A program made the translations under genes and the position numbers. DNA of 51,736 nt from Candidatus Cloacimonadota bacterium (GTDB taxonomy: Bacteria > Cloacimonadota > Cloacimonadia > Cloacimonadales > JAMOQM01), in the NCBI GenBank assembly GCA_027064005.1, contig JAMOQM010000051.1, positions 1 to 51,736 on the forward strand, given 5' to 3'. Positions 751 through 21,549 of this stretch are shown here, piece by piece. Every line of letters starts with the position of its first letter. Within the stretch, counting starts at the first letter, position 1. Below the pieces are notes generated by a model. The model saw nothing but the letters and a program-made list of their open reading frames with translations. It did no database searches and had not been told where the DNA came from.

Positions 751-1788
751 TCATAATTCAAAAGTGTTTTTTATTTCTTCAGCTGCTCTTTTAGCTGCAT
801 TTCCATCAAGATTGTCAAGCATTATATTGTTCCATTTTATTCTCATATTTGATTTTTCAGTATTATTTTTTAATGAATATTTAATTGCATCAACACATTC
901 ATTAAAATTTTCAACACGTATAGATATTTCGTCAAGCATTGTAATAATTTCGTCAGATAATCTTTTAGCCTGATTAATTTTAAACGTTATAATTGGTTTA
1001 TTCAGGCTGCAAAATTCTGCGATAATCGAACTTGTATCTCCGACCATAAGATCCGAAACAGCAAGATAGGGAAGAATATTCTTATCTTTTATAAAAAAAA
1101 TATTTTTATTGTTAGCAATAGACAATTTATATTTATTTGATATCCAGGGATGAAGAGTAACTATAATATTATAATCATCGGATATTAAATCTAATTTTTT
1201 ATACCATTTTTCAATAGCAGACATACCTGATTTATCCCAGGTAGCAGAAAAAATTATTATAGGTTTAGTGTTTGGGAAAATTTTATTTTTTAATTTTTTT
1301 ATTGTCTGTGAATTTATTTCTCCGTTAAAAAGAGGATCAATTTTAGGAAAGCCAACATTAGCCCCATTTTTAATGCCGAGTTTTTCAGCTTGTCTTAATT
1401 CTGCTGATGAAGTAAATAAAAATTTATCAAAATATTTATATTTTTTTGAACTAATAAAATTTTTGAAATGATAAACTCCATGTCTCATTCCAATTTTTTT
1501 AATATTTTTTTCAGGAAACATATAAATATCGTGCCTTACCATAATTAACGATTTTGGGAAACAAGGCCAGAGCTTGGATTTAATATTATATTTTTCTAAT
1601 TCTTTTTTTACTTTTTTGTTTTTGGATATAATTTTAATCTCCGGAAGATATTTCAAAACAGGTTTAAAAATTAAATAATCTAGATAATCACCACAATAAA
1701 AAGCAATATCATTTTCTTTCTTAAAGAAATTTTTAGCATTCCAAATAAATCTGTAAGGGAGATAATATAAATAATATGAAAAAACCAT
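751..1788 (-). CDS. CDP-glycerol glycerophosphotransferase (TagB/F) family protein
   Basis: RHG, GFPKID, SATW, LHP and GDTSSIIAEF motifs. Confidence 0.8.
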   Translation of the reverse strand: MVFSYYLYYLPYRFIWNAKNFFKKENDIAFYCGDYLDYLIFKPVLKYLPEIKIISKNKKVKKELEKYNIKSKLWPCFPKSLIMVRHDIYMFPEKNIKKIGMRHGVYHFKNFISSKKYKYFDKFLFTSSAELRQAEKLGIKNGANVGFPKIDPLFNGEINSQTIKKLKNKIFPNTKPIIIFSATWDKSGMSAIEKWYKKLDLISDDYNIIVTLHPWISNKYKLSIANNKNIFFIKDKNILPYLAVSDLMVGDTSSIIAEFCSLNKPIITFKINQAKRLSDEIITMLDEISIRVENFNECVDAIKYSLKNNTEKSNMRIKWNNIMLDNLDGNAAKRAAEEIKNTFEL

Positions 1789-1794
1789 AATTGC

Positions 1795-2796
1795 TTAATA
1801 TTTGTTAATTATTTGTTTCAATACTTCATCGGGTAAAATCATCTTCATACAATTATGATGTGTCAAAGGACATTTTTTATGCCCATGATTACCACAAGGA
1901 CGACAATCCAAATCTTTTTCAAAAACATAATCGTTTTTTCTGAAAGGTGAATAACCAAATGATTTTACTGTAGGTCCAAAGAAAGCAAATACATCTGTTT
2001 TAACAGCATTTGCAATATGTAAAGCCCCGCTGTCATTACAAATCATTAAATTGCATTTTTCAATTATAGCAGCTGATAATAATATTGACGCCTTCCCTGC
2101 CAATATTAAGGTTTTATTTTTGGGAGCAATTTTTTCGCAGAGGTCTTGTTCTTGTTTGCTGCCAATGTAAACGAGATTAAATCCATTTTCTACTAATTTG
2201 TCTGATAGCTCTTTATAATATTTTTCAGGCCAACGTTTAGTGTCCCAAACTGAACCCGGGGCAATAGCAATTGTTTTGTCTTTATTGAAATTTTTTAATA
2301 ATCCGATAGCTTGATTTTTTGTTTCTTTATCTGGAAATAATTCCGTTTGAATATCAAATTTTTTATCAGAGAAAAATTTCAATAGGTCTAAATTTTTTTC
2401 TATTCTTCTAACATCATGTCTAAAAGAAGTTTTTTTTGTAAGAAATTTTGCTGCAGTGCCTCTGTCAAAACCTATACGTTCGGGAATATTTGCAAAAAAA
2501 GTCAGCATAGCTGTTGTAAACGAACTATGAGGTAATATTGCAAGGTTGTATTTGTTTTGTTTTATCTGTTTTAGTGTTTTAATAAAGTCCTTTAATTTAT
2601 TTTTTCTTTTATCAAAATAATAGATATTATTGATATCAGGATTATTGTCAAGAATGCCCTTTGATTGAGGAATTACCAAAACGTCAATATCAGAGTCAGG
2701 AAATATTTGTTTAAGACCTCTGATAAGCGGCGTTATTAAAATCACATCACCGAGAAAAGCTGTCTGAACTATTAATATTTTTTTATAATTTTTCAT
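1795..2796 (-). CDS. waaF: LPS heptosyltransferase II (GT9)
   Basis: TAFLGDVIL, APGSVWDTKRWP, NDSGALHIA, FFGPT, C-terminal CRPC..C..C. Confidence 0.8.
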   Translation of the reverse strand: MKNYKKILIVQTAFLGDVILITPLIRGLKQIFPDSDIDVLVIPQSKGILDNNPDINNIYYFDKRKNKLKDFIKTLKQIKQNKYNLAILPHSSFTTAMLTFFANIPERIGFDRGTAAKFLTKKTSFRHDVRRIEKNLDLLKFFSDKKFDIQTELFPDKETKNQAIGLLKNFNKDKTIAIAPGSVWDTKRWPEKYYKELSDKLVENGFNLVYIGSKQEQDLCEKIAPKNKTLILAGKASILLSAAIIEKCNLMICNDSGALHIANAVKTDVFAFFGPTVKSFGYSPFRKNDYVFEKDLDCRPCGNHGHKKCPLTHHNCMKMILPDEVLKQIINKY

Positions 2797-3868
2797 ATAA
2801 ATCTATGTTTTTTGCGATTGTTAATTCTATATCAAATTCTTTTACAGATTCTTTTGCTTGTTTAGAAAAATCAACCCTTAATTTTTCATCATCAATCAGT
2901 TTTAGAATAGCCGAAGCTAATTCTTTATAATTTTTTGGGGGTACCAACAATCCGTTTTCGTTATGATGAACAGCTTCCGGAATTCCGCCTGTTATTGTTC
3001 CAATCACGGGAAGTCCGATAGATTGTGCATCAAGAATGGAAGTTCCCAAACCTTCTTTTTTTGATGCCATTACAAAGATATCGAAATGTTTAATTATTTC
3101 GCCTACATTTGATTTATATCCCAAAAACAAAAATTTGTTGTTTAGGTTAAGATTCGAGGCTAATTCTTTAATTGTTTCTTCATTTTTCCCATCACCTAAA
3201 GAAATAAAAGTTACGTTATTTTTTTTACTTAGAACGATTCCCGCCGCTTTTAACAAATTAGGATAATCTTTATGACCAACCAAAGCGGCCACAGTTCCGA
3301 CAATAATCTCATCTTGTCCTATTTGATAATTTTTTCTAAAATTCTTCATCTTAGAAACTTCATCAAATTTATGAATATTTATCCCGGAATGAATTACCCG
3401 AAGTTTAGTTTTCGGAACACCATCTTCTAATAAAATCTTTTCAATTCCTTCTGAAATACAGACAATTTTTGAGACTAATTTTGTATTGTATTTAAAACGG
3501 CTAAAAGGATTATTTTTTAGATGGAAATCTACCCGTCTCACACCGATTATTTTAATTTTAGGATAAAATAATTTTGATAAAATCCCAATCGAAAGTGCGT
3601 GTGCAGAATGAGCGTGAAGAATATGATAATTATCTTTTTTACAAAGTGAGGCAATTTTGAAAGCGGAAATTATATCTATTTCTCCTCGCATTTTTATTTC
3701 ATTAAAAGGAAGTCTTTTCTCTTTAAAATATTTTGTTAGTTTGGATTTCGGTTGGCAAACAAATCTTGTTTTATATCCTCGTTTAAGCAGACCTTCAAAA
3801 AGATAAACTGCTTGTTGTTGACCACCTCGCCAGCCATATTCTGAATCTATATGCAAAATATTTTTCAT
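2783..3868 (-). CDS. GT4 family glycosyltransferase
   Basis: WRGGQQQ N-terminal motif; EGLGTSILDA, GGIPE. Confidence 0.85.
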   Translation of the reverse strand: MKNILHIDSEYGWRGGQQQAVYLFEGLLKRGYKTRFVCQPKSKLTKYFKEKRLPFNEIKMRGEIDIISAFKIASLCKKDNYHILHAHSAHALSIGILSKLFYPKIKIIGVRRVDFHLKNNPFSRFKYNTKLVSKIVCISEGIEKILLEDGVPKTKLRVIHSGINIHKFDEVSKMKNFRKNYQIGQDEIIVGTVAALVGHKDYPNLLKAAGIVLSKKNNVTFISLGDGKNEETIKELASNLNLNNKFLFLGYKSNVGEIIKHFDIFVMASKKEGLGTSILDAQSIGLPVIGTITGGIPEAVHHNENGLLVPPKNYKELASAILKLIDDEKLRVDFSKQAKESVKEFDIELTIAKNIDLYEKL

Positions 3869-4608
3869 TTATTTAATTCCCACAATCTGAAATATTTATA
3901 AGAAACACCAAATCCGGAAACAAATGAAATAAGCAAACCTGTTTTACCGTCCAAAAATCCTGCTTGTAAAAAATACATTTTTACGAATTTAAAAATTCCT
4001 CTAAAAACAGCATTTCCAATTGAAGATTTCCTGCCTTTTTGGAAAAGTCTTTCGGCTCCCAGTTCACTGTATTTTATCATTTTGTCTAAATGAGTTCGCA
4101 AGGTTGGGAATGAATAATGATAAATAACATCATAAATAATTCCTTTCTTTTCTTTTGTTTGAACTGATTCGTGAACAATTTTATCATTAAAAGAGGCAAA
4201 TCTTTTATTGAACAATCTTAGTGGAAAATCTTTATTCCAACCGCAATGTTTAACTTCTTTTCTAAGATAAAAAGAGGTTCGTTTTATTTTATAAGCTTTT
4301 TTATCAGGATTTTTCAAAATATCAATAATTTTATTTTTTAAATCTTCGGAAACTTCTTCATCGGCATCCAAAGATAAAACCCATTCATTGGATGTGGAAT
4401 CAATGGCAAATTGTTTTGTTTTGCCAAAACCCTGCCATTTTGTTTGAATAATTTTGCATTTATACAATCTACAAACGTTTAGCGTTAAATCAGTTGAGCC
4501 GGAATCAACCACTACTATTTCATCAGCCCATTGAACAGACGCTAAACAGCGACCAATATTTTTTTCTTCATTTTTGGTAATAATCGCGACAGATAGTTTA
4601 TTTTTCAT
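3865..4608 (-). CDS. GT2 family beta-glucosyltransferase (WaaE/KdtX-like)
   Basis: IITKNEE, VDSGSTD, LDADE, VHE, GFLDG motifs. Confidence 0.85.
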   Translation of the reverse strand: MKNKLSVAIITKNEEKNIGRCLASVQWADEIVVVDSGSTDLTLNVCRLYKCKIIQTKWQGFGKTKQFAIDSTSNEWVLSLDADEEVSEDLKNKIIDILKNPDKKAYKIKRTSFYLRKEVKHCGWNKDFPLRLFNKRFASFNDKIVHESVQTKEKKGIIYDVIYHYSFPTLRTHLDKMIKYSELGAERLFQKGRKSSIGNAVFRGIFKFVKMYFLQAGFLDGKTGLLISFVSGFGVSYKYFRLWELNK

Positions 4609-5626
4609 TCATAATTTCTCTTATTTTTTGATATGCTGCTTCCGGTGTTATTCCAAAAGTATTGTCATGAAAAGAATCATTTTCTTTATTACAAAGATGA
4701 TGATGAGTTTTAAAAACAGAAGCCGGTGACCAAGTTACAGTGTCAGTTGAACCAAACAACGCCAAAGTTTTAATGTTTGCAGTTGTTGAAAGATGGTTCA
4801 TTCCTCCATCATTACAAACCAATAACTCCGATTTTTTTAACAGTGCCAGAGCTTGATTAAATGTAGTTGGCAAAGCAATTATAGATTCTTCATTCATTTT
4901 ATTTTTGATTGATTTAACTAAATCTAATTCTGAAGGTCCCCATAACCAAATGATTGAAAATCCATCTTTAGCTAATTTATCGGCAAGTTGAGAATAGTAA
5001 TCAGGATTCCATATTTTCCATTTTAACGGACTGCCGGGAGAAAAGATCACTAATTTTTTATTACTTAAATTTTCTTTTTCCAGCCAATTATCGATATATT
5101 TCTCAGATTCTTTTGTAACATTACAATACAATTTATAAGGAACAAATTCAATTCCTAAAGGTTGTAAGATATCAAATTTTCGGGAAGCACTATATCGAAT
5201 CGGACCGCGAGAAGCTTTTAGATTATATGCCATATTCAATCTTCCATTAGCATAACCTACTCGAAATCTTGCTCCACTCAACCACGTAAATTGTTGAGAG
5301 CTTGGCTTATTTTGTTGATCAATTACAATGTCATATTTATTTTTCCTTATTTCCAAAATTTTCTTAATTCTATTCCAAACATAATATTTATCGTGTTTAT
5401 CTCCGGTCGTGATAATTTTATCAATAAAAGGATGATTTTTGAGAATTGCTGAATATTTTTTTTTAGTTAAATAATGAATCTCAGCGTGAATAAATTTTTT
5501 TTTCAATTCTTCAAAATAGGAAGTTGTTAAAAAAACATCACCAAATGGTCCAAGCTGAATTATCAAAATTTTCTTTATTGATTTCGGATTAAACTTTTTT
5601 ATAATCGACATATTCTTTTTCTTCAA
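4598..5626 (-). CDS. GT9 family heptosyltransferase
   Basis: GPFGDV, SPGS..WKIW, NDGGMNHL, LFGST; true start may be the second Met. Confidence 0.8.
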   Translation of the reverse strand: MKKKNMSIIKKFNPKSIKKILIIQLGPFGDVFLTTSYFEELKKKFIHAEIHYLTKKKYSAILKNHPFIDKIITTGDKHDKYYVWNRIKKILEIRKNKYDIVIDQQNKPSSQQFTWLSGARFRVGYANGRLNMAYNLKASRGPIRYSASRKFDILQPLGIEFVPYKLYCNVTKESEKYIDNWLEKENLSNKKLVIFSPGSPLKWKIWNPDYYSQLADKLAKDGFSIIWLWGPSELDLVKSIKNKMNEESIIALPTTFNQALALLKKSELLVCNDGGMNHLSTTANIKTLALFGSTDTVTWSPASVFKTHHHLCNKENDSFHDNTFGITPEAAYQKIREIMNEK

Positions 5627-5972
5627 AAAAATTCGAATTAAATTTTGTGTTAATATCTCTTTTTATAGCAGCTCTTTCATCATTTTCAAAATACACACTT
5701 CTAGCTAATTTAATAAACTCATCATCAAATTCTTGTTTGAATTCTTTTATGCGAATATTATCTTCAATTTCCCATAATTTGATATTTATTTTTTTTAATC
5801 GCATAAAAATTTCCGAGTCGGAAGTAATTCCAATTTCTTCCATCGATTTTTTTAAGGTATTATATTCATTACGAATATTAATTAATTTTTCTTCTGCTTT
5901 AATTCTTTCTAATTTTATCTCAAGAATTGTAACTTTATCAACCAGTTCACCTATCGAAATATCTATTTTCAC
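5589..5972 (-). CDS. DUF6165-like protein
   Basis: SIGELVDKVTILEIK...LWEIEDNIR...LARSVYFENDERA..K...EEKEY. Confidence 0.75.
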   Translation of the reverse strand: MKIDISIGELVDKVTILEIKLERIKAEEKLINIRNEYNTLKKSMEEIGITSDSEIFMRLKKINIKLWEIEDNIRIKEFKQEFDDEFIKLARSVYFENDERAAIKRDINTKFNSNFFEEKEYVDYKKV

Positions 5973-6043
5973 ATTAACTCCAACTAATTTTATTTATTAA
6001 GACAACAAAAATAAATAAGCTTTTCAAGCAATTTTTTTCTTTC

Positions 6044-6889
6044 TCATTTTAATTTTATAACTTCAATTTTGTCATTGCCCAAAGAATTATTAATTCCAAA
6101 TTTTGCGGAAAAATTTTTCTTATTGATTTCAATTTTACGTTTTTTATAGTAATCTTTATTTACTCTTTCTCCGTTATTATGAAATTCTTGATGCCAATGA
6201 TGAAGCGGATAAACATCTTTAAATGGGTTTATCGGACGGATTCCTGCGGCAAGCAATCTCCTCCCGAAATCATCATCTTCATTTCCCCAACCTATAAAAT
6301 TTTCATCATACCCGTTTATTTCCAAATAATCTTTTTTGAACATTCCTGTTATACCACCGCGAAATTTTGTTCCTTTTTTTTGTATTTTCAAACTTTGAAG
6401 GAACCGATTAAATTTATCTTTTCTGTATTGAAAAAGAATTTTATTTTTTTGAGATTCGGTAATAATATCTGAAAAATCTCCGCTTAAAAGATTCTCGAAA
6501 GTAATTTTCTTTGATTGTTCTTGATTTAACCTTATCGGATATCCGACGATGACATTTTTCTCGGAAATGGAGTTTACGAATTCTCGCAAAAATCCTGTGG
6601 AAAACATAAGATCCTGATCAACAAAAATTATATAATCACCTTCAGCAACTCTAACCGCATTATTTCTACATCGAGCCAACCTGAATCCTAAATCGGCTTG
6701 TTCAACGAACTTTATATTGAATTTAAAATCTTTTATTAAATCTTGTATCTCGGCAACAATATTTTCTGAAGATCCATCATCCGAAATAATTAACTCGTCA
6801 GGCGTAAAATCTTGTCCTTTTAAAGAGATAAGAAGATTTTTTAACAATTCAACTCTGTTATATGTTGTGATAATCAAAGATATTTTCAT
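6044..6889 (-). CDS. GT2 glycosyltransferase with galactosyltransferase-type C-terminal domain
   Basis: TTYNR, DDGS, DQD, GYDENFIGWGNEDDD, HHWH. Confidence 0.85.
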   Translation of the reverse strand: MKISLIITTYNRVELLKNLLISLKGQDFTPDELIISDDGSSENIVAEIQDLIKDFKFNIKFVEQADLGFRLARCRNNAVRVAEGDYIIFVDQDLMFSTGFLREFVNSISEKNVIVGYPIRLNQEQSKKITFENLLSGDFSDIITESQKNKILFQYRKDKFNRFLQSLKIQKKGTKFRGGITGMFKKDYLEINGYDENFIGWGNEDDDFGRRLLAAGIRPINPFKDVYPLHHWHQEFHNNGERVNKDYYKKRKIEINKKNFSAKFGINNSLGNDKIEVIKLK

Positions 6890-8121
6890 ACTTTCTCCAA
6901 CAAGAATTTAATATTATCATCAATTGAAAAAACATCTTTTCCCCAGATTTTATTCCGTAATTCAATTCTTTTTTTAGAAAAATCCAAATTATCGGAATCC
7001 TCAATAGCTTGAATTAATTCTTTAAATGAATTACATTTTTTCCCGACAATAATTCCATCATAATCAAAATACATTTTGCGACTTTTCAGCATATATTCAT
7101 CCAAATCAAAAGGGAAGAAAATTATTTCTTTATTTAGAAGAAGATAATCGAAAAATATCGATGAATAGTCAGAAATCAGAACATCTGTGAATGGTAAAAT
7201 CGGGTAAATATCGACTTTGCTGTCTAATAATTTTATATTTGAAAATTGAGATAAATTAATTATTTTTTTTGAAGTTGTCGGATGTAACTTTATCAAAAAT
7301 AGAAAGTTTTTGCCTTTCCCAAGTCTATCCAATTGTGCAAAATTGATTCCGGAGTCTTCAAAAAACTTTGATTTACCATCTCGAAATGTTGGAAGGTAAA
7401 CAAAGATTTTTCTATATTTAGATAAAGATTTAACCAGCTCAAAAGTTGCTTTCGATTCAAATCTTGATATTAATTTTAATAATTCCTCTTTAGGATATTT
7501 AAAAATAGAATTTCTCGGATATTCTCCGATTAGAACATTTTTTTCTTTTATTTTAAAAGCGGAAGTAAAGAATTTTTCCATATATTCGGAAGGAATTAGA
7601 AGAAAGTCGGGATGACGATAAAGTCCCGGAAATATGAGAGTTTTGACAAATTTTTCAAATTTATTTCTGTATTGAAATTTCCAGGCAATTTTCCCGAATT
7701 TAATATCGAATTCAATTTTTTTTAAAGGAACGCCGTGCCATAAATTTACAAATTTAGCTCCTCTGGAAAACCAATAAGAGACATCCTCAATATTTGTATT
7801 TGAAAAAATTATACTCGCTCGCAAAATAGAAAAAATGCCTTTGATACTTTTTTTGTAAAAAGCATTAATACCTTTAGATTTTAGAAAATTAAGATTAGCT
7901 TTTTTTCGAGTTATCCAAATAATTTTAATCTCGGGGTAATTTTTCTCTAAATAAAGATATAAGTATTTTGAATTATCTCCAAATCCCGCATTATACGTTC
8001 CAAATATCCAAGTATTTTTATCTCTTTTGACAAATCCGGACAGAAAATAAATCAAATATAGAGGATAATATTTGGATTTTTTTGCAATTACTTCAAGATG
8101 TTTAAGATTCATTGATTTCAT
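6886..8121 (-). CDS. CDP-glycerol:poly(glycerophosphate) glycerophosphotransferase (TagF-like)
   Basis: DNSKY, NLWHGVPLKKI, GEYPRN, YLPTFR, KLHP, SDYSSIFFDY. Confidence 0.85.
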   Translation of the reverse strand: MKSMNLKHLEVIAKKSKYYPLYLIYFLSGFVKRDKNTWIFGTYNAGFGDNSKYLYLYLEKNYPEIKIIWITRKKANLNFLKSKGINAFYKKSIKGIFSILRASIIFSNTNIEDVSYWFSRGAKFVNLWHGVPLKKIEFDIKFGKIAWKFQYRNKFEKFVKTLIFPGLYRHPDFLLIPSEYMEKFFTSAFKIKEKNVLIGEYPRNSIFKYPKEELLKLISRFESKATFELVKSLSKYRKIFVYLPTFRDGKSKFFEDSGINFAQLDRLGKGKNFLFLIKLHPTTSKKIINLSQFSNIKLLDSKVDIYPILPFTDVLISDYSSIFFDYLLLNKEIIFFPFDLDEYMLKSRKMYFDYDGIIVGKKCNSFKELIQAIEDSDNLDFSKKRIELRNKIWGKDVFSIDDNIKFLLEKV

Positions 8122-8275
8122 TTAAAGAATATTTAAAAACTTTGGATAACAAATTACCACTATTAAGAATTTGTTCTTTAGAAAAAAATTTTATTAAGTC
8201 TATAGATAATCCTAAATAAACTGCTTTTTTGAACCATGGTTTATTTTCCCAATACATCCAAATATTTTTATTCAT
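8102..8275 (-). pseudogene. Internally deleted remnant of a capsular-polysaccharide-synthesis/GT32-like glycosyltransferase (57 aa)
   Basis: MNKNIWMYWENKPWFKKAVYLGLSIDLIK...; the IWxYWE N-terminus is typical of the family. ATG overlaps the upstream TAA (TAATG) and the end overlaps the next start. Confidence 0.5.
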
Positions 8276-9843
8276 TAGACAAACACCGCCGTAATTTTCT
8301 TTGAAATTCCTTCCACAACTTTGGTCTCAAATTTCTTATTTTTATTGAAATTATAAATCAACATGTATCCCTCGTTCAAACCATAAGAATCCAAATAATC
8401 ACATAATTGCTCAATCCCATCGGAAAGATATTTTTCTCCATACCAAATTTTGAGTTCTATAACATATCTTTTGTCATTATAAGTTATGACCAAATCCATT
8501 TTTCGGTCTTCAGCGGTAACATTTTCTTTAAATAAAAATCCCTTCCCGTTAATAATTGGACGTAAAAATGACATCAATAATAATCGCCCGTTTTTTTCTA
8601 AAAATTTATTATCCTTGGAAGAATTATGTTCCTTCATAAATAGCTGAAATTTTTGTAAGATTAAGACAATGTTCAATTCATTATTTTCCGTAAATTTGGA
8701 AGAATTATATAAGTTTAAAGCCGATTCATTGGTTTTCTGTTTAGACAACATATAATCAATTATTCTAAATTCATATATTTTGTTACTTATATCACACTGC
8801 CCTGTTTTATTTTGAGAGAGAATGCCATAAATTTTCCCCTTATTAATTATTGGATCTCCAATGTTGAATCTATAATTTTCACCTTGAATTACAATATTAA
8901 AAACAAGATTATATAAATCATTATTATTTTCTAAATTTTTAGTTACATCATCAAAATTCGTGTTTGTATAAGCTCCATCAATTAAATACTTATATGCATT
9001 TTCCACATCATCAACAGTCCACGGCCGTTTATTTTCTCGTAAAATATTTTCATCGATAATCTTCCCCATTTGACTGATAAGAAAAGGATTACCGTTTGTA
9101 TAATAAAAAATTCTTTGAGCTATTTCGGAAATATTCATCAGGAAATTATGTTCATCAGCATAATCTTTTAGCATCGGAATAATTTCATCAACAGAAAACG
9201 CAAAATCAATTTCTAAATTCTCGGCAATATTCCACGGACTATTTAATTTTCTTTCCGCATCCGGACGTAATTTCAATTTTAAAGATTTTACATCGTGAAC
9301 CCCGAGAAGAATAACCGAATGAAAAGTAAGATCGTTTTCACTTTTCATCGCAAGATATTTATCTCTTAAAATTGCGAGAAAACTTATAAATACTTGATTA
9401 TTACTGGCTTTATCGACTTCATCAATTATTAAGACAACTTTCTTTTTTACTGAAGAAATCCACGTTGCAACAAATCTAGATAACTCTTTAAAACTGTGAA
9501 TGTTTCCGGCAGCTTCTTCCAGAAAATCAGCAAGTTTAGGTTGTTTAAAAAATAAACCTTTTGCAAATGTTTCTAAGACAGCCGGAGCAAATCTTTCTTC
9601 CGATTCAAAAGGGAGGTCGCCAATTCCTTCAAAACTAGTGGAAATTACCAGATAATCTTCTCGCTTTTCAAATTCTTTCTTCAAAAGATATTGCATCGTT
9701 GTTTTTCCAAATTGTCGCGGGAAATTTATAGCATAATAATATCCTTCTTCCACAAGATATTTACAGCGTGCAAATTTTTTCGAGACATCACACATATAAT
9801 GTTTTTCCGGAATACACAAACCGGTTGTATTAAATCTTTTCAT
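8275..9843 (-). CDS. AAA-ATPase-like protein with C-terminal PD-(D/E)XK nuclease domain, copy B
   Basis: Walker A PRQFGKTT, Walker B LIIDEVD, nuclease D-L...IELK. Confidence 0.85.
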   Translation of the reverse strand: MKRFNTTGLCIPEKHYMCDVSKKFARCKYLVEEGYYYAINFPRQFGKTTMQYLLKKEFEKREDYLVISTSFEGIGDLPFESEERFAPAVLETFAKGLFFKQPKLADFLEEAAGNIHSFKELSRFVATWISSVKKKVVLIIDEVDKASNNQVFISFLAILRDKYLAMKSENDLTFHSVILLGVHDVKSLKLKLRPDAERKLNSPWNIAENLEIDFAFSVDEIIPMLKDYADEHNFLMNISEIAQRIFYYTNGNPFLISQMGKIIDENILRENKRPWTVDDVENAYKYLIDGAYTNTNFDDVTKNLENNNDLYNLVFNIVIQGENYRFNIGDPIINKGKIYGILSQNKTGQCDISNKIYEFRIIDYMLSKQKTNESALNLYNSSKFTENNELNIVLILQKFQLFMKEHNSSKDNKFLEKNGRLLLMSFLRPIINGKGFLFKENVTAEDRKMDLVITYNDKRYVIELKIWYGEKYLSDGIEQLCDYLDSYGLNEGYMLIYNFNKNKKFETKVVEGISKKITAVFV

Positions 9844-9867
9844 TTCTCCCTCTAATATTTTTATTCA

Positions 9868-11430
9868 TTAGACAAACACCGCCGTAATTTTCTTTGAAAT
9901 TCCTTCCACAACTTTGGTCTCAAATTTCTTATTTTTATTGAAATTATAAATCAACATGTATCCCTCGTTCAAACCATAAGAATCCAAATAATCACATAAT
10001 TGCTCAATCCCATCGGAAAGATATTTTTCTCCATACCAAATTTTGAGTTCTATAACATATCTTTTGTCATTATAAGTTATGACCAAATCCATTTTTCGGT
10101 CTTCAGCGGTAACATTTTCTTTAAATAAAAATCCCTTCCCGTTAATGATTGGACGTAAAAATGACATCAATAATAATCGCCCGTTTTTTTCTAAAAATTT
10201 ATTATCTTTGGAAGAATTATGCTCCTTCATAAATAGCTGAAATTTTTTTAAAATAGTTAAAACATCCAATTTACCGTTCTTTATAAATCTTGCTGAAGTA
10301 TATTTCTCTCCGGGAGATGTTCTCGCTTTAGAAAGCAAATAATTTAAAATTCTGAACTCATATATTTTATTACTGATATCACATTGTCCATCAATGTTTT
10401 GTGAAAGAATACCATAAGTTTTACCTTTAATAATTACCGGATCTCCTAAATCAAAAGGAAAAATTTCACCTTCAATAACTATTCTCTCGGTTACTTTTCT
10501 CAAATCGGAATTGTTTTCCAAATTTTTATACATATCATCAAAATTGGTCGTTGTATAGCCAAGATTAATAATATATTTATATGCATTTTCCACATCATCA
10601 ACAGTCCACGGCCGTTTATTTTCTCGTAAAATATTTTCATCGATAATCTTCCCCATTTGACTGATAAGAAAAGGATTACCGTTTGTATAATAAAAAATTC
10701 TTTGAGCTATTTCGGAAATATTCATCAGGAAATTATGTTCATCAGCATAATCTTTTAGCATCGGAATAATTTCATCAACAGAAAACGCAAAATCAATTTC
10801 TAAATTCTCGGCAATATTCCACGGACTATTTAATTTTCTTTCCGCATCCGGACGTAATTTCAATTTTAAAGATTTTACATCGTGAACCCCGAGAAGAATA
10901 ACCGAATGAAAAGTAAGATCGTTTTCACTTTTCATCGCAAGATATTTATCTCTTAAAATTGCGAGAAAACTTATAAATACTTGATTATTACTGGCTTTAT
11001 CGACTTCATCAATTATTAAGACAACTTTCTTTTTTACTGAAGAAATCCACGTTGCAACAAATCTAGATAACTCTTTAAAACTGTGAATGTTTCCGGCAGC
11101 TTCTTCCAGAAAATCAGCAAGTTTAGGTTGTTTAAAAAATAAACCTTTTGCAAATGTTTCTAAGACAGCCGGAGCAAATCTTTCTTCCGATTCAAAAGGG
11201 AGGTCGCCAATTCCTTCAAAACTAGTGGAAATTACCAGATAATCTTCTCGCTTTTCAAATTCTTTCTTCAAAAGATATTGCATCGTTGTTTTTCCAAATT
11301 GTCGCGGGAAATTTATAGCATAATAATATCCTTCTTCCACAAGATATTTACAGCGTGCAAATTTTTTCGAGACATCACACATATAATGTTTTTCCGGAAT
11401 ACACAAACCGGTTGTATTAAATCTTTTCAT
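9868..11430 (-). CDS. AAA-ATPase-like protein with C-terminal PD-(D/E)XK nuclease domain, copy A
   Basis: Same motifs as copy B; differs only in residues ~289-400. Confidence 0.85.
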   Translation of the reverse strand: MKRFNTTGLCIPEKHYMCDVSKKFARCKYLVEEGYYYAINFPRQFGKTTMQYLLKKEFEKREDYLVISTSFEGIGDLPFESEERFAPAVLETFAKGLFFKQPKLADFLEEAAGNIHSFKELSRFVATWISSVKKKVVLIIDEVDKASNNQVFISFLAILRDKYLAMKSENDLTFHSVILLGVHDVKSLKLKLRPDAERKLNSPWNIAENLEIDFAFSVDEIIPMLKDYADEHNFLMNISEIAQRIFYYTNGNPFLISQMGKIIDENILRENKRPWTVDDVENAYKYIINLGYTTTNFDDMYKNLENNSDLRKVTERIVIEGEIFPFDLGDPVIIKGKTYGILSQNIDGQCDISNKIYEFRILNYLLSKARTSPGEKYTSARFIKNGKLDVLTILKKFQLFMKEHNSSKDNKFLEKNGRLLLMSFLRPIINGKGFLFKENVTAEDRKMDLVITYNDKRYVIELKIWYGEKYLSDGIEQLCDYLDSYGLNEGYMLIYNFNKNKKFETKVVEGISKKITAVFV

Positions 11431-11450
11431 TATTACTCCGTTTTGATGAA

Positions 11451-12395
11451 TTATCTTTTAATCAATTTGTAATTTTTAAATCCGCCGATATGATTTCCAT
11501 TTAAAAGATTTTGCTCTAAAATTGTTAAAAAACGATATTTTAGTTTTTCGTGTTTATGAAGTTCTCTATTTGGATTAGGCTTTCCGGAATATTGCAATTT
11601 ATCTTTCCAATTCATTCGAGAAATCATCTCTGTCATAACTTTAGGATGAGTTTCAGTAAAAACCGCTAATTTGTTCAAAGGACCGTAATCAAATTCCGAA
11701 GGAGTGTTTTTATACATTTCTTCAACTTTTTTATTCCCTTTATGAACCGTATCTAAAGCTTTTTTCTTGTTAATCATCAAATGTGGAGGTCTCACCCATC
11801 CATAATGAAAAATATACGCATCAACAGTCGCGACATTTAATTTATGAGTACCTTCTTTTTGGCGATAATTAATTCCGTCAAAATTAGGAATTCTTCTAAA
11901 AGATTGAGCCGATTCCCAAGAATGAATATCTTTATTATTTCTAATAATTCTAATCTCATTCGGATACCAACGATGAGAAATATGATAATGCTCGTAATCT
12001 CCCCAAAAATGACGATATTTAAAAAGAAGTCCTTCCACTTCTTTATCATCAAGTAAATCCTGACATCTTTGTTTTATAATTGGAAGATATTTTTCATGTA
12101 CAACTTCATCTGCCTGAAGATAAAATAACCAATCTCCGCTACAAGCATTTTTTGCAATATCTGTTTGATGAGCATTTTCCATACCACGCGGATATTTTTC
12201 CAAATCCCATTCCGTATCGATTATTTTTATTTTAGGATCGTTTATTGCTACAATTTTTTCTCTTGTATTATCATCACTTTTTCCAACAGCAACGACAAAT
12301 TCATCGCAAATCGGCAAAATTGATTTTATTGCTTCTGTAATCGGATAGTATAATTTTATTCCATTTTTAACGAACGAAAACCCGCTTATTTTCAT
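11451..12395 (-). CDS. GT2-like glycosyltransferase
   Basis: SDDNT, YLQADE, HYGWVR. Confidence 0.75.
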   Translation of the reverse strand: MKISGFSFVKNGIKLYYPITEAIKSILPICDEFVVAVGKSDDNTREKIVAINDPKIKIIDTEWDLEKYPRGMENAHQTDIAKNACSGDWLFYLQADEVVHEKYLPIIKQRCQDLLDDKEVEGLLFKYRHFWGDYEHYHISHRWYPNEIRIIRNNKDIHSWESAQSFRRIPNFDGINYRQKEGTHKLNVATVDAYIFHYGWVRPPHLMINKKKALDTVHKGNKKVEEMYKNTPSEFDYGPLNKLAVFTETHPKVMTEMISRMNWKDKLQYSGKPNPNRELHKHEKLKYRFLTILEQNLLNGNHIGGFKNYKLIKR

Positions 12396-14299
12396 TTATT
12401 CCTCTCATTTTCTTTTTTAACATTAAATTGCAAATTATAAAGTTCTTGGTATCTTTGGCAATTTTTTAGTAAATAATCATTTGTCCCCACATCTAAGATT
12501 TCTCCTTTATCCATAACCACAATTTTATCGCTTGAAAGGATAGTTGAAAGTCTGTGAGCAATAACTAATACTGTTCTGTTTTCCGTAATTTTGTCAATTG
12601 CAGCTTGCACTTTTTGTTCTGAATCTGTATCTAAGGAACTAGTTGCTTCATCAAAAATTATTATTTCAGGATTATTTAGAATTGATCTGGCGATACAAAT
12701 TCTTTGACGTTGTCCACCCGACAAATTTGTTGCTTTTGATGATAAAACTCGCTCGTATTTCCCCGGTAGATTTGAAATAAACTCGTGAGCGTTTGCAATT
12801 TTAGCTGCTTCAATTATTTGTTCTAAAGGTATTTCTTTATCAGCACCATATTGAATATTATTTCTTATTGTATCTGAAAAGAGAATTGATTCTTGAGTTA
12901 CGACTCCAAACATTTTTCTTAACGATTTTATCTCCATTTTTGTTATTGGAATTGAATCTATTAAAATCTCACCTTCATTCGGGTCAAACATTCTTAAAAG
13001 GAGATTAATTAAAGTTGTTTTTCCTGAACCTGAACTTCCGACAAAAGCTACTTTTTCACCTTTGTTTATCATTAAATTAATATTTTTTAAAACTAAATCT
13101 TTATCGTTATATGAAAAAGAGAGATTTTTAATCGCCAAATATTTATCAAAAGATTTTTTCTTAATAGGATTTGAAACCTCGAAAACCTCATTTTTTTGTT
13201 CAATAATATCATAAATCCTATTTAAAGAAACCAAGGCTTTTTTGATATTTGTATAAGCTTTTGTAATTTGTTTGAAAGGAGAAAGCATTGAAAAAGTTGT
13301 TAACAAAAACGCCATAAAACTTCCAAAAGTAAAAGAATCCTGATTGGTTAAAACAGCTTTTCCGCCGATTAGCATTATAAATGAACCGACCAAAATCGTA
13401 ATAAATTCACTAAAGGGCATATTTATGGCAGAATATAATTGAGCTTTTCTCCAAAATTTAAAATACCGATTATTTAAATCATTAAATTTTTTATTCTCAT
13501 AATCTTCTTTAGCAAAAATTTTTACAATCATGATATTATTTAAAATTTCTTCAATATTACTAAAAAGACTCGAAAATTGTTTTTGAATTCTTTTCGCATA
13601 TTTCTTTATTTTTGCACCGAGAAAATTTAAGCCCACCGCAAAAATCGGTAATATAGCTAAACTTATAATAAATAACCGACTATTAATTAATAACGCAATT
13701 CGCACTAAAACTAAAATAGAGAAAACATCGCGAATAATATTAACGGTAGCCATAATCAATTGGGAATTAACGATTTCTACATCATTAATAATTCTTACCA
13801 AAGAATCACCTACTTTATTTTTACTGAAAAAAGCTGCCGAAAGATGAGTGTATTTGTAAAAAATCTTGTTACGTAAATCTTTAATTGTTTTACCGCGAAG
13901 GTTTATAAACATAACTTTATTAAAATAATAGGTTAAATTCTTGAGAGTAAACAAAACAATAATTGTTACCACGATAAATTTAAGCAAGACATAAGAATCT
14001 GTTGATTTCATAATGTCTTCATAATTTATCAATAATGATTTATACGTAGAAAGATCAAAAGAAATTTTATGTACCTCAAAAAAGAGATGTGTTTGGTAAA
14101 TTATTGCGTGTAAAAAATCATTGGTATTTTTATACAATACCCCACCATCTTTAGGTGTAAAAACATAATCCAAAAGTGGTTTGACTAAAGTAACATTTAC
14201 CCCGCTAAACAAAGCGTAAATAAAAAGACTTATTACACCTAAAAGCATATAAATCCAATTTTTAAAAGCAATTTTATATAAACTTATTAATCGATTCAT
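12392..14299 (-). CDS. msbA: ABC exporter, lipid A flippase MsbA-like
   Basis: TM domain plus GSSGSGKT, LSGGQRQR, DEATSSLD, IAHRL; LPS gene context. Confidence 0.75.
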   Translation of the reverse strand: MNRLISLYKIAFKNWIYMLLGVISLFIYALFSGVNVTLVKPLLDYVFTPKDGGVLYKNTNDFLHAIIYQTHLFFEVHKISFDLSTYKSLLINYEDIMKSTDSYVLLKFIVVTIIVLFTLKNLTYYFNKVMFINLRGKTIKDLRNKIFYKYTHLSAAFFSKNKVGDSLVRIINDVEIVNSQLIMATVNIIRDVFSILVLVRIALLINSRLFIISLAILPIFAVGLNFLGAKIKKYAKRIQKQFSSLFSNIEEILNNIMIVKIFAKEDYENKKFNDLNNRYFKFWRKAQLYSAINMPFSEFITILVGSFIMLIGGKAVLTNQDSFTFGSFMAFLLTTFSMLSPFKQITKAYTNIKKALVSLNRIYDIIEQKNEVFEVSNPIKKKSFDKYLAIKNLSFSYNDKDLVLKNINLMINKGEKVAFVGSSGSGKTTLINLLLRMFDPNEGEILIDSIPITKMEIKSLRKMFGVVTQESILFSDTIRNNIQYGADKEIPLEQIIEAAKIANAHEFISNLPGKYERVLSSKATNLSGGQRQRICIARSILNNPEIIIFDEATSSLDTDSEQKVQAAIDKITENRTVLVIAHRLSTILSSDKIVVMDKGEILDVGTNDYLLKNCQRYQELYNLQFNVKKENERNK

Positions 14300-18213: not shown

Positions 18214-19188
18214 ATGTCATTGAATGTTCATAATAATATGAGCGCACAAATCGCTTCGTATTATCTTCAGAAAAACTACAACAGCATGGGAAAATCCATC
18301 GAACATTTATCTTCAGGATTAAGAATTAACAACGCCGGTGATGATCCTCAAGGAAAAGCCTTAAGCGAAATGTTAAAAAGTAGAGCAAATGTTTTAGATA
18401 AAGGCATAACAAATATCCAAATGGCAATTTCAGTTTCACAAACAGCAGAAGGTTCTTTAAGTATAATTGATGAAAAACTAATCCGAATGAAAGAACTCGC
18501 AGAACAATCAGCAACCGGAACTTATAACAATACTCAGCGATTAATGTTAAATTCAGAATTCAATGAAATGGCTGCTGAAATCGATAGAATCGCCAATAGC
18601 ACAAATTTATCCGGATTAAAATTATTGGATGGTAATATTTCAACTTCAACAAAATATACTGCAAATAACGGTTGGTACAAAGCTGATTCCGATTCTTATT
18701 CGACCGGAGATTCAAAAGATGTTTATGCCCATTTTACTAAAAACGAAAAATTAAAAGTACATTTCGGACAAACAAACAGCAGTGCCGAAGATTACTACTA
18801 TATTCATTTAAAAGATATGACAACAAATGGCTTGTTTCACGATTTTATTGATCCAACTGATTCAACCAAAAATACAATTTCAAAAGTCATGGCAATTTCT
18901 TCATCAGCTTCAGCTCAATTAGCTCTTGAACAAATTAATTCTGCCATGGTTTATAAGGAAGAAGAGCGTTCCCATTTGGGAGCAATTCAAAATCGTTTAG
19001 AAACTTCGTTAAATCATTTAGAAATAACTAAAGAACAAGTCGAAAGAACCGACTCTATATTATCGGATGTAGATGTGGCGACAGAAATGTCGAATTTCAC
19101 AAAATTCCAAGTTCTTACTCAAAGTGCAACGTCGATGTTGGCTCAGGCAAACGCCCTGCCACAGATGGTTTTAAAACTTTTAGCTTAA
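18214..19188 (+). CDS. fliC: Flagellin (divergent paralog 1)
   Basis: LSSGLRINNAGDD, QTAEG, LGAIQNRLE, DVDVATEM, LAQAN. Confidence 0.92.
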   Translation: MSLNVHNNMSAQIASYYLQKNYNSMGKSIEHLSSGLRINNAGDDPQGKALSEMLKSRANVLDKGITNIQMAISVSQTAEGSLSIIDEKLIRMKELAEQSATGTYNNTQRLMLNSEFNEMAAEIDRIANSTNLSGLKLLDGNISTSTKYTANNGWYKADSDSYSTGDSKDVYAHFTKNEKLKVHFGQTNSSAEDYYYIHLKDMTTNGLFHDFIDPTDSTKNTISKVMAISSSASAQLALEQINSAMVYKEEERSHLGAIQNRLETSLNHLEITKEQVERTDSILSDVDVATEMSNFTKFQVLTQSATSMLAQANALPQMVLKLLA

Positions 19189-19323: not shown

Positions 19324-20313
19324 ATGTCTTTAGTAATTAACCATAACCTTATGTCTATGAACACTGCGAGAAATTTAAACAATTCGTATAATAGTTTGGC
19401 AAAATCCGTACAAAGATTATCTACAGGTATGAGAATCAATTCTGCTGCCGATGATGCCGCCGGATTGGCTATTAGAGAAGGAATGAGATCTGATATTTCA
19501 GCACTGAATCAAGGTGTAAGAAATGCTCAAGATGGTATTTCGATGATTCAAACTGCAGAAGGAGCTCTCGGGGTAGTTGATGAAAAACTAATTCGTATGA
19601 AAGAGTTGGCAGAACAAGCTGCAACCGGTACTTATACAAACGCTCAAAGATTAATCATTCATTCGGAATTTTCTGCAATGGCTGCAGAAATAGACAGAAT
19701 CGCAACTTCCACAGATTTCAACGGTGTAAAATTATTGGACGGTAACGTTTCCGTAGCCGGAAATGGTGGTCAATGGACAGCCAATAATACATGGAGTGCA
19801 ACAGAAGGATTGTGGACAAATAGTAGCGGATGGAAAGAAGTTACCGGCAATGCAACCAATGGCAATATTACAGGTGGAGTGAAAATTCACTTTGGTGCCG
19901 GAAATAATCGTGCCGAAGATTATTACTTTGTTCGTTTAGGAGATATGAGAACGACTTCATTATTCGCAAGTAGCGGAACAACTGTCAGCTCAGCAACTAG
20001 TGCAGCCAATACAATTGCGGTATCAACACAACATGCAGCTCAAATAGCTCTTGAACAATTGAATACAGCAATGACAAGAAAAGAAAACATGCGAGCATCA
20101 CTTGGTGCTGTTCAAAATCGTCTTGAAAACACTATTTCGAACATTTCAATTCAGTCTGAGAATTTACAAGCTTCCGAGTCTCGTATTTCTGATGTTGATG
20201 TAGCAACAGAAATGACGAATTTCACAAGAAATCAAGTATTGACTCAATCAGCTGTAGCAATGCTTTCCCAAGCAAACTCATTACCTCAAATGGCATTGAG
20301 ATTACTCGGATAA
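19324..20313 (+). CDS. fliC: Flagellin (paralog 2)
   Basis: LSTGMRINSAADDAAGLAI, LGAVQNRLE, SRISDVDVATEM, LSQANSLPQ. Confidence 0.95.
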   Translation: MSLVINHNLMSMNTARNLNNSYNSLAKSVQRLSTGMRINSAADDAAGLAIREGMRSDISALNQGVRNAQDGISMIQTAEGALGVVDEKLIRMKELAEQAATGTYTNAQRLIIHSEFSAMAAEIDRIATSTDFNGVKLLDGNVSVAGNGGQWTANNTWSATEGLWTNSSGWKEVTGNATNGNITGGVKIHFGAGNNRAEDYYFVRLGDMRTTSLFASSGTTVSSATSAANTIAVSTQHAAQIALEQLNTAMTRKENMRASLGAVQNRLENTISNISIQSENLQASESRISDVDVATEMTNFTRNQVLTQSAVAMLSQANSLPQMALRLLG

Positions 20314-20438: not shown

Positions 20439-20560
20439 TAGTTCCTCATTTTTTTGGTTCGGTAAAATAGTCTGGTAAAACAATAGAAATGCTGAGATGA
20501 TAAATTAAGGATTAGTCCTTAACTTGGCAAGGATGCCACTAACCGATCAAGGAGGAATTA
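20439..20560 (+). promoter_or_regulatory. Structured 5' leader of flagellin 3 (anti-SD long hairpin with embedded CsrA site)
   Basis: Nested pairings 20439-47/20552-60, 20454-63/20542-50, 20468-77/20534-41, 20490-96/20523-29, 20505-11/20516-22. Alternative CsrA hairpin TGGCA-AGGA-TGCCA at 20525-38. Confidence 0.7.
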
Positions 20561-21549
20561 TGTCACTCGTAATAAACCACAATATGATGGCCATGAATTC
20601 AGCAAGAAACTTAAACAAGTCTTATAACAGTTTGTCTAGGTCAGTTCAACGCTTATCAACAGGAATGAGAATCAATTCGGCAGCAGATGATGCAGCAGGA
20701 TTGGCAATTCGTGAAGGTATGCGTTCGGATATCGCGTCATTGAATCAAGGTGTAAGAAATGCTCAAGACGGTATTTCATTGATTCAGACGGCAGAAGGTG
20801 CACTCGGTGTTGTTGATGAAAAACTCATTCGTATGAAAGAGTTGGCTGAACAAGCAGCAACCGGTACCTATACTAATGCTCAGAGATTAATTATCCATTC
20901 TGAATTTTCTGCAATGGCTGCAGAAATTGACAGAATCGCAACTTCAACGGATTTTAACGGTGTTAAGTTGTTAAACGGTAATGTTTCCGTAGCAGGTAGT
21001 GGAGGTAGTTGGACAACCAACAATACATGGAGTGCAACTGAAGGAATGTGGACAAATAGCAGCGGATGGAAAGAAGCTAACGGTACTGCAGCCAATGGAA
21101 ACATAAAAGGTGGAGTAAAAATTCACTTTGGAGCAGGAAATAACCGTGCAGAAGATTACTATTTCGTAAGAATTGGCGATATGAGAACAACATCATTATT
21201 TGCAGCAACCGGAACAGCTGTTAGTTCGGCAACTTCAGCGGCAAATACAATTGCAGTTTCAACTCAACATGCAGCTCAAATGGCTCTTGAACAATTGAAT
21301 ACGGCAATGACAAGAAAAGAGAACATGCGTGCTTCTCTCGGTGCTGTTCAAAATCGTCTTGAAAACACTATTTCAAACATTTCGATTCAGTCTGAAAATT
21401 TACAAGCTTCCGAGTCTCGTATTTCTGATGTTGATGTAGCAACAGAAATGACGAATTTCACAAGGAATCAAGTATTGACTCAGTCTGCTGTAGCAATGCT
21501 TTCACAAGCAAACTCGTTACCACAAATGGCACTTAGACTTATCGGATAG
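20560..21549 (+). CDS. fliC: Flagellin (paralog 3)
   Basis: Near-identical to paralog 2. Start set to ATG 20560 (SD GGAGG, MSLVINHN) rather than TTG 20524. Confidence 0.95.
   Translation: MSLVINHNMMAMNSARNLNKSYNSLSRSVQRLSTGMRINSAADDAAGLAIREGMRSDIASLNQGVRNAQDGISLIQTAEGALGVVDEKLIRMKELAEQAATGTYTNAQRLIIHSEFSAMAAEIDRIATSTDFNGVKLLNGNVSVAGSGGSWTTNNTWSATEGMWTNSSGWKEANGTAANGNIKGGVKIHFGAGNNRAEDYYFVRIGDMRTTSLFAATGTAVSSATSAANTIAVSTQHAAQMALEQLNTAMTRKENMRASLGAVQNRLENTISNISIQSENLQASESRISDVDVATEMTNFTRNQVLTQSAVAMLSQANSLPQMALRLIG

Follow-up and report, generated by a model that had tools for sequence, protein, structure and literature searches.

Proteins that join an N-terminal AAA-type ATPase to a C-terminal PD-(D/E)XK nuclease are known from the DUF1703 family (PF09820 plus PDDEXK_9, PF08011), which has no known function. 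The report on Cardinium cCpun describes several paralogs to a genome, incomplete copies at the borders of contigs and a patchy distribution suggesting horizontal transfer; the paralogs have expanded, show intragenic recombination among themselves as detected by RDP4, and are described there as widely diverged (mean identity 39%) and without homogenisation (PMC6387759). A related architecture appears in PMC10853773, which places Orc/Cdc6 ATPases in conflict systems and describes a widespread effector class, comprising relatives of the CR-effectors, in which a Cdc6/Orc1-clade NTPase carries a C-terminal restriction-endonuclease-fold domain. Here we analyse a 51,736-nucleotide stretch of DNA (the window) from a Candidatus Cloacimonadota bacterium (GenBank assembly GCA_027064005.1, contig JAMOQM010000051.1), in which two adjacent minus-strand genes, A (8275-9843) and B (9868-11430), encode ATPase-nucleases of this general kind. 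The two genes are identical or nearly so at both ends and strongly diverged in a domain-sized centre, the cassette, which is predicted to contain a winged helix.

The pair shares with DUF1703 its order of ATPase and nuclease. The A and B proteins, however, fall just under the PF09820 cut-off and below that of PF08011, and are a better fit to AAA_35 and PDDEXK_3; moreover, unlike the Cardinium paralogs, their flanks are identical and exchange is limited to a single cassette with conserved borders. By architecture they resemble the Cdc6/Orc1-clade effectors and may belong among them. In predicted fold, and in the order AAA+ base, lid and winged helix, they also resemble Orc1/Cdc6 and the archaeal ATPases PABY2304 (2qen) and SSO1545 (2fna), although identity to these proteins is only 10-15%, the nuclease is an addition, and the gene is patchy and multi-copy rather than a universal replication gene. 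Concerted evolution by gene conversion is established for duplicated bacterial genes such as tufA and tufB. As in that example, paralogs within a genome are here closer to each other than to orthologs in other genomes over part of their length; in A and B, however, a central domain escapes homogenisation as two ancient types, and the copies are adjacent direct repeats. Already known were the family's architecture, the recombination of paralogs in a sister family and the process of gene conversion. What is new, as far as our searches show, is that a domain-sized winged-helix cassette has two ancient alleles with conserved borders and that tandem genes with homogenised flanks carry the two next to each other; a literature search found no paper on such a cassette pattern.

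Results

Two tandem genes share their ends and differ in the centre

Gene A, the downstream copy, encodes 522 residues and gene B, the upstream copy, 520; the open reading frames (ORFs), as listed, lie on the same strand 24 nucleotides apart. Their nucleotide alignment spans 1569 columns and falls into three blocks. Columns 1-854 (codons 1-284; 8990-9843 in gene A and 10577-11430 in gene B), which encode the predicted AAA+ base and lid, contain no difference. Within columns 855-1189 as many as 118 of 335 columns differ, a 6-nucleotide indel included, giving an identity of ~64%. This block is the cassette, which occupies 8655-8989 in gene A (335 nucleotides, residues 285-397) and 10248-10576 in gene B (329 nucleotides, two residues shorter); 48 of the 113 aligned residues differ between the encoded segments, in addition to the two-residue indel. 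The last 380 columns, encoding the predicted PD-(D/E)XK nuclease, hold three differences, at columns 1215, 1230 and 1290 (8629, 8614 and 8554 in gene A; 10222, 10207 and 10147 in gene B). All three are synonymous (codons 405 GAA/GAG, 410 AAG/AAA and 430 ATT/ATC) and lie no more than 101 nucleotides from the cassette border. The repeat extends 14 nucleotides beyond the stop codon, 8261-8274 being equal to 9854-9867, and the complete 3' shared block is therefore 8261-8654 in gene A and 9854-10247 in gene B. Between the copies there remains a unique junction of 10 nucleotides (9844-9853), which reads AGAGGGAGAA on the gene strand, is Shine-Dalgarno-like, stands just before the gene A ATG and differs from the 10 nucleotides that precede gene B.

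If the 121 differences were spread evenly, the probability of finding at least 118 of them in a 335-column block would be 7e-83 (hypergeometric). The block structure is thus far beyond chance and its borders are sharp. An initial annotation of this DNA had reported an identical 5' end of ~850 bp, a 3' end of ~390 bp with three synonymous changes near the boundary, and a diverged middle with a two-residue indel; the 5' identity proves to be exact, alignment and codon check confirm the 3' changes, and the same coordinates were recovered for the middle and its sharp borders. The 5' flank is cleaner than the 3' flank (Fisher p 0.025), and the three differences in the latter, lying so near the border, would fit several exchange events with different end points.

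The duplication is present in independent sequence data

The assembly consists of 153 contigs (2.40 Mb, 30.8% GC), of which the window is one in its entirety. Contigs from four public runs belonging to four studies (X1, X2, X6 and X7) were placed on positions 8000-11700; one of X1 and X2 may be the source sample and hence not independent. Both cassettes occur as separate contig pieces in all four runs (in X1, for example, at 8625-9019 and 10218-10606). Position 9848, within the junction, is bridged by a contig in three of the four (X1, X6 and X7), X2 having no cover there. The letter at this position is that of the window in X1 and changes from C to T in X6 and X7, both of which differ from the window at many positions and thus represent other strains. 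Since both cassettes stand apart in every run and the junction is bridged in three, this is a genuine tandem duplication and not a pair of collapsed alleles; the collapsed or chimeric assembly that the initial annotation had named as its refutation is itself largely refuted by these contigs.

Sequencing depth, which as a per-contig value is not a copy number and carries supporting weight only, fits two copies per genome in all four runs. In X1 the unique flanks have depths of 74.7 and 75.9, cassette A 69.7, cassette B 60.1 and the shared pieces 110.7-122.3. The pattern is alike in X2 (flanks 69.1 and 76.8, cassettes A and B 67.8 and 61.8, shared pieces 112.2-130.3), in X6, and in X7 (flanks 15 and 15.2, cassettes 16 and 24.5, shared pieces 39.4 and 41.1). 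Some contig joints in X6 and X7 skip 53 or 120 nucleotides, or go back 1499 with 88 letters between; these look like contigs of diverged strains placed on a two-copy target, rather than rearrangements. Loose contig ends were also seen at the cassette borders in the runs, and could represent further cassette variants or unrelated organisms.

Predicted architecture of the A and B proteins

Each protein is predicted to consist, in order, of an Orc1/Cdc6-like AAA+ base and lid (residues 1-267), a winged helix (~residues 293-374), a linker and a PD-(D/E)XK nuclease (~residues 412-522). Pfam profiles locate the ATPase at the N-terminus. AAA_35 (PF14516) matches gene B with 33.8 bits (cut-off 27) and does not list gene A at E<=0.001 despite the identical residues 1-284, while AAA-ATPase_like (PF09820) scores 25.0 bits for gene A and 26.0 for gene B against a cut-off of 26.1. 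Precomputed hits to one or both of these profiles exist for most of the homologs listed (120). Both copies retain intact P-loop NTPase motifs, with a Walker A GKT (G46-K47-T48; 9700-9708 in gene A, 11287-11295 in gene B) and a Walker B of the form hhhhDE (D141-E142; 9418-9423 and 11005-11010) that are invariant in 110 aligned homologs.

The isolated C-terminal 131 residues match PDDEXK_3 at E 0.001 with 19.9 bits, below the cut-off of 22, which all five homologs tested pass (23.8-28.1 bits); PDDEXK_9 (PF08011) did not reach its cut-off with the same segment (E 0.037, 14.5 bits against 25.5). The catalytic residues are in place. In gene A they span 8449-8496, with D450 at 8494-8496 and E463-L-K465 at 8449-8457, and are invariant in the 110 homologs; the counterparts in gene B are D448 (10087-10089) and E461-L-K463 (10042-10050). 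The predicted model sets this D...(D/E)-x-K signature on an alpha-beta-beta-beta-alpha-beta core formed by helix 412-431, strands 436-438, 451-455 and 458-466, helix 470-486 and strand 491-497. The AAA ATPase and PD-(D/E)XK modules that the initial annotation placed on either side of the centre are thus supported. NCBIfam holds no family for either protein, and a profile search of PDB sequences returned nothing meaningful, the best match being a sugar-binding protein at E 0.4.

The AlphaFold model of the gene A protein, built on the homolog alignment, has a mean predicted local distance difference test score (pLDDT) of 84.1 and a predicted template modelling score (pTM) of 0.78. Its best structural match is PABY2304 (Z 15.7, root-mean-square deviation (rmsd) 4.5, 316 residues aligned, model 2-363 on chain 1-350), followed by Orc1/Cdc6 2qby_A (Z 15.5, 317 aligned, model 1-369 on chain 20-389), MuB (8xvb; Z 14.6), SSO1545 (Z 14.4) and TnsC (Z 13.6-14.1), with subunits of ORC and STAND proteins further down. 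In the matched chains a winged helix follows the ATPase lid and, on these predicted structures, A and B show the same Orc1/Cdc6-type order of AAA+ base, helical lid and winged helix. The likeness to MuB and TnsC is one of structure; in contrast with the settings of those proteins, the surroundings of the pair show no transposase, inverted terminal repeats or target duplications. The model contains, in addition, four helices (residues 77-132) between strands 64-70 and 135-141. Residues 184-203 (gene A ~9235-9294) form a loop with pLDDT below 50 that holds the family-invariant D184, N201 and S202, next to the equally invariant W204 and N205; this loop may be functional, ordering only on DNA or in an oligomer.

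The cassette is a predicted winged helix of two old types

To model the cassette by itself, residues 270-408 of gene B were folded alone with a 24-sequence alignment (pLDDT 80.9). The 50 matches listed by the VIA structural search consist entirely of winged-helix proteins or domains. CzrA is the best of them (Z 8.0, rmsd 3.0, 77 residues aligned), and the winged-helix domains of Orc1 (chain 282-389; Z 5.9), PABY2304 (223-350; Z 5.5) and ORC2 (Z 5.4) are also present. The swapped segment is therefore predicted to comprise a winged helix (8722-8967 in cassette A; an alternative version at 10315-10554 in cassette B) followed by the linker to the nuclease (residues 375-397). These matches lend predictive support to the winged helix that the initial annotation had guessed at.

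Within the cassette the proportion of synonymous differences (pS) is 0.683 (44.4 of 65.0 synonymous sites), that of nonsynonymous differences (pN) is 0.256, and the ratio of nonsynonymous to synonymous rates (dN/dS) is ~0.17. In the flanks, 852 nucleotides of 5' sequence show no difference and the 3' flank has a pS of 0.042. With synonymous sites near saturation, the sequences indicate that the two cassettes are old, under purifying selection and functional alternatives, and thus not the products of rapid diversification. It also follows from the contrast between cassette and 5' flank that recombination or gene conversion is needed at the cassette borders, as the initial annotation had supposed, and this view gains support from the same swap, with the same borders, in other lineages (see below). 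The 'diversifying' character that it had suggested for the system is not supported, given the dN/dS, the presence of only two old cassette types and the lack of a spare cassette pool in the assembly.

Both cassette types recur in relatives

The ATPase-nuclease family is very large, with at least 4896 proteins at E<=1e-10 among 8000 candidates scored, and is uncharacterised. Trees were built from three parts of the gene for 27 sequences of 62-100% identity. A and B come out as identical sisters when either the N- or the C-terminal part is used. The cassette tree separates them, placing A with P0003 and P0006 (86/71) inside a 16-member clade (97/91) and B with P0007 and P0019 (94/86); the N-terminal tree instead pairs P0003 with P0007 (94/89) and P0006 with P0019 (95/78). 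The flanks thus group by lineage and the cassettes by type, which, judged from these sequences, is the signature of an old A/B duplication with homogenisation of flanks within genomes.

The mosaic itself is found again among these relatives. P0006 and P0007 show no difference at residues 179-284 and 392-522 and 40 differences at residues 285-391, largely at positions that separate A from B. A more distant pair, P0118 and P0120 (~49% identical to A and B, both listed with a longest contig of 12,447), has identities of 0.92 in the N-terminal part, 0.42 in the middle and 0.93 in the C-terminal part. Conserved flanks around a recurring, domain-sized variable centre were therefore seen in three pairs: A/B, P0006/P0007 and P0118/P0120. 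It should be emphasized that these six relatives (P0003, P0006, P0007, P0019, P0118 and P0120) are known as proteins only and lie outside the DNA loci considered next. A recent donor of the B cassette was not found among 5.8 billion proteins, the best match being 72% identical (P0007), about the level that the flanks reach against the same proteins.

A second exchanged block and further copies in the family

At the DNA level the family was sampled at 21 loci, 11 from a scan of metagenomes (distant relatives, 35-46%) and 10 from a scan of genomes. A second same-strand copy lies directly adjacent in four of the 21 (L024, L013, L014 and L026). The pair at L024, from a metagenome-assembled genome (MAG) labelled Verrucomicrobiota, is ~70% identical for 1140 nucleotides and ~95% thereafter; locus L026, from a Planctomycetota MAG, starts with the 3' end of an upstream copy. 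A contig-end copy in the latter MAG (L028:4001-4978), compared with L026:106-1677, is 97-100% identical over nucleotides 1-120, 45-80% over nucleotides 121-540 and 95-100% over nucleotides 541-960. The block swapped here corresponds to residues ~41-180 and is different from the cassette. The same ATPase block differs between P0006 and P0007 (residues 38-178), and, of the four ways to combine ATPase block and winged-helix cassette, three are represented among P0003, P0006 and P0007. The second swappable block (residues ~38-180), seen in these two other lineages, holds the ATPase helices that separate strand 2 from strand 3; in Orc1/Cdc6 the DNA-contacting initiator-specific motif sits at this place, and the two may be equivalent.

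Fragments are also frequent. One Victivallales MAG (G233) holds 15 matches, many of them at contig ends, where at least six are fragments. Elsewhere, L030:4001-4487 joins residues 1-45 straight to residues 389-509 through an internal deletion, and L027:4001-5393 comprises two overlapping frames with a stop. The genome of the window (G000) itself carries a third, diverged paralog, represented by C108:35981-36190 (+; locus L004), 57% identical over residues 2-71, and C27:60181-60702 (-; locus L003), 43% identical over residues 344-513; it is broken at two contig ends and its middle 270 residues are absent from the assembly. No further cassette copies were detected in the assembly by tblastn, which returned this split paralog at 43-57% and one weak hit. 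In another Candidatus Cloacimonadota MAG of the same order (G005), a copy truncated to residues 1-201 is 75% identical (L006, listed with L029).

Genomic context and distribution

The pair is embedded in a long minus-strand operon that encodes glycosyltransferases (GT9, GT2 and GT1), glycerophosphotransferases and an MsbA-like ABC transporter. As in the window (751-14299), glycan-synthesis genes neighbour the nearest homologs with DNA (L024, L025 and L026). A hexapeptide transferase and a glycosyltransferase come after L024, GT61, radical SAM and GT9 genes come before L025, and L026 has an HD protein and an MptE-like protein after it. Neighbours of the more distant loci include Fic, a transposase (L013) or ParE (L015). 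The 153-nucleotide gap between gene A and the downstream glycerophosphotransferase gene is filled by a 51-codon ORF (8102-8257, minus strand) that overlaps the start of the latter. Further along the window there are three tandem flagellin genes with Flagellin_N and Flagellin_C domains on the plus strand (18214-19188, 19324-20313 and 20524-21549); the second and third are mostly ~83-100% identical, falling to 50% in the first 30 residues, and the first is ~23-77% identical to both.

The pair does not form a compositional island, GC being 0.26-0.32 across 8-12 kb, like its neighbours, and no terminal inverted or direct repeats of 10 nucleotides or more flank it. A scan for promoters and terminators was not above shuffled expectation (27 against 25.2 expected, and 1 against 1.8). 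Of 232 genomes of the phylum, only five contain a match at E<=1e-30, and the best full-length match is 47% identical; among 72,556 plasmid records, 16 carry the gene. MAGs labelled Verrucomicrobiota, Victivallales and Planctomycetota are the source of the closest relatives with DNA; it follows that the gene moves horizontally between phyla. A role as replication initiator is not what these data indicate, since the gene is present in so few genomes of the phylum, stands in a glycosyltransferase operon and has a nuclease attached.

Discussion

The explanation towards which we lean, and which we regard as probable without being secure, is that A and B represent an ancient cassette dimorphism in tandem paralogs whose flanks are homogenised by gene conversion. 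Gene conversion between the adjacent copies would keep the ATPase and nuclease flanks identical within a genome. Conversion tracts would stop at the cassettes, where nucleotide identity would be too low to allow pairing and a long mismatched tract would be needed, and selection for both versions of the cassette may help to preserve them. The likeness to Orc1/Cdc6, MuB and TnsC suggests, by analogy, that the protein probably uses ATP to assemble on DNA, where the winged helix would either touch DNA or determine specificity for a partner or for regulation and cleavage would fall to the nuclease. The pair would then be one enzyme in two specificities, most likely with a role in conflict. The patchy distribution, the MAG with 15 matches and the recombining, expanded paralogs of the related DUF1703 family were counted as conflict-like traits, and a conflict or defence function is our best guess, plausible but at less than even odds.

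It could be argued that the same arrangement arose through a very recent duplication, after which the centre of one copy was replaced by an imported allele through homologous recombination, possibly following natural transformation, with crossovers in the conserved flanks. Flanks at zero or near-zero divergence are what such a history would leave, as are three synonymous differences adjoining the 3' border in the manner of the end of an imported tract. The window also contains a ComEC-type competence gene (48878-50350), the family moves between phyla, and the reassortment of cassette types and of the residue 38-178 block among P0003, P0006 and P0007 would result equally from exchange between genomes. 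The search of 5.8 billion proteins, however, yielded no close donor, the best B-type cassette being no nearer than its flanks; the diverged strains X6 and X7 already have both cassettes and the junction, indicating that the arrangement predates their split; and, because the decanucleotides before genes A and B differ, a fresh and simple duplication of a single segment does not account for the pair. We thus view import as rather unlikely, while recognizing it as the main competitor of the ancient dimorphism with homogenised flanks.

Two other explanations carry much less weight. Programmed variation, whether by a shufflon or other invertible element, a diversity-generating retroelement or pilin-like silent cassettes, would also place a variable centre between conserved flanks, as in HsdS or shufflon targets, and homologous recombination across its direct repeats could reduce the pair to a lone A or a lone B gene. 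The 42 ORFs of the window, however, include no recombinase, integrase, transposase or reverse transcriptase. The repeats are direct rather than inverted, the assembly holds no further cassette copies, and the dN/dS is low. A retroelement target was rejected on the missing reverse transcriptase in the window and on substitutions that are distributed over all types with no adenine bias (A>G 19, A>T 17, T>A 15, T>C 13 and others), and invertible or shufflon phase variation on the direct repeats and the missing recombinase in the window; programmed variation as a whole is very improbable. The comparison with HsdS that the initial annotation had drawn holds for the conserved flanks and the recurring, domain-sized centre, exchanged by homologous recombination, with old versions in different backgrounds. 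It fails in that no Pfam hit to Methylase_S/HsdS, HsdM or HsdR occurs in either protein or in any of the 42 ORFs, so that HsdS domain and methylase partner are both missing; there is likewise no invertase and no inverted silent copy, and what varies is a winged helix within an ATPase-nuclease, leaving a functional analogy only. Least probable of all, and barely credible, is an assembly artefact in which two alleles of a single-copy gene in a mixed population were misassembled as a tandem repeat. The genome is a draft in 153 contigs, an exact repeat of 854 nucleotides is hard for short reads to resolve, and the third paralog is indeed split over two contig ends. Against this, the unique junction with both its flanks is bridged in three of four runs, two of them from other studies and strains, the shared pieces have about twice the depth of the unique flanks and each cassette about the same depth as those flanks in all four runs, and the junction has a Shine-Dalgarno-like site of its own, unlike the one before gene B.

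Several observations weigh against the ancient dimorphism, or against parts of it. Homogenisation within genomes is deduced from protein trees of moderate support (83-97), whose A-type and B-type partners may come from one genome or from several, and much the same trees would arise if cassette alleles were reassorted between genomes. The run contigs pop bubbles at single-nucleotide polymorphisms and cannot reveal strain-specific changes common to both copies. The winged-helix assignment is modest, with Z no higher than 8.0, and Foldseek with the cassette alone gave no match at E<=0.001. Over 5995 pairs the cassette averages 0.12 lower identity than the flanks, but across the family it is not the most variable part, residues 81-120 being more so, and it contains invariant positions (K302, G340 and E358). 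The putative recognition helix (residues 331-338) has only three A/B differences, most of those in the winged-helix region lying in helix 308-318, the loop that follows it (320-328) and the linker 369-397. A change of DNA specificity is thus not evident, and the cassette may instead set the docking of the winged helix on the ATPase or nuclease, or the pairing of subunits. As to defence, the PADLOC profiles PDC-S54 and PDC-M29B match the nuclease core only, weakly and over part of their length; for PDC-S54, positions 299-366 of 410 align with residues 448-518 (E 2e-5, 22 bits), far from most of the profile. A search of 50,697 phage records likewise turned up no homolog.

The second exchanged block raises a broader possibility, which we consider speculative and improbable, namely that the family is a modular sensor-nuclease for nucleic acids programmed by recombination, in which the two elements predicted to contact DNA, the winged helix (residues 285-397) and the helical insert of the ATPase (residues 38-178), exist as discrete ancient alleles reassorted between paralogs and genomes at conserved borders. 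If so, combinatorial target specificities would reside in one polypeptide, extending the logic of HsdS to an immune nuclease of Orc/Cdc6 type, and tandem pairs would be kept for two specificities at once or for mixed rings.

The pattern described here offers a compact bacterial case of concerted evolution with an escaping domain, and explains why genes for these ATPase-nucleases break short-read assemblies. As natural chimeras that differ in nothing but the cassette, A and B are clean experimental material. The mosaic marks the predicted winged helix as a module exchanged whole while the catalytic modules stay constant, and thereby points to the part of the protein most likely to set its target or partner specificity.

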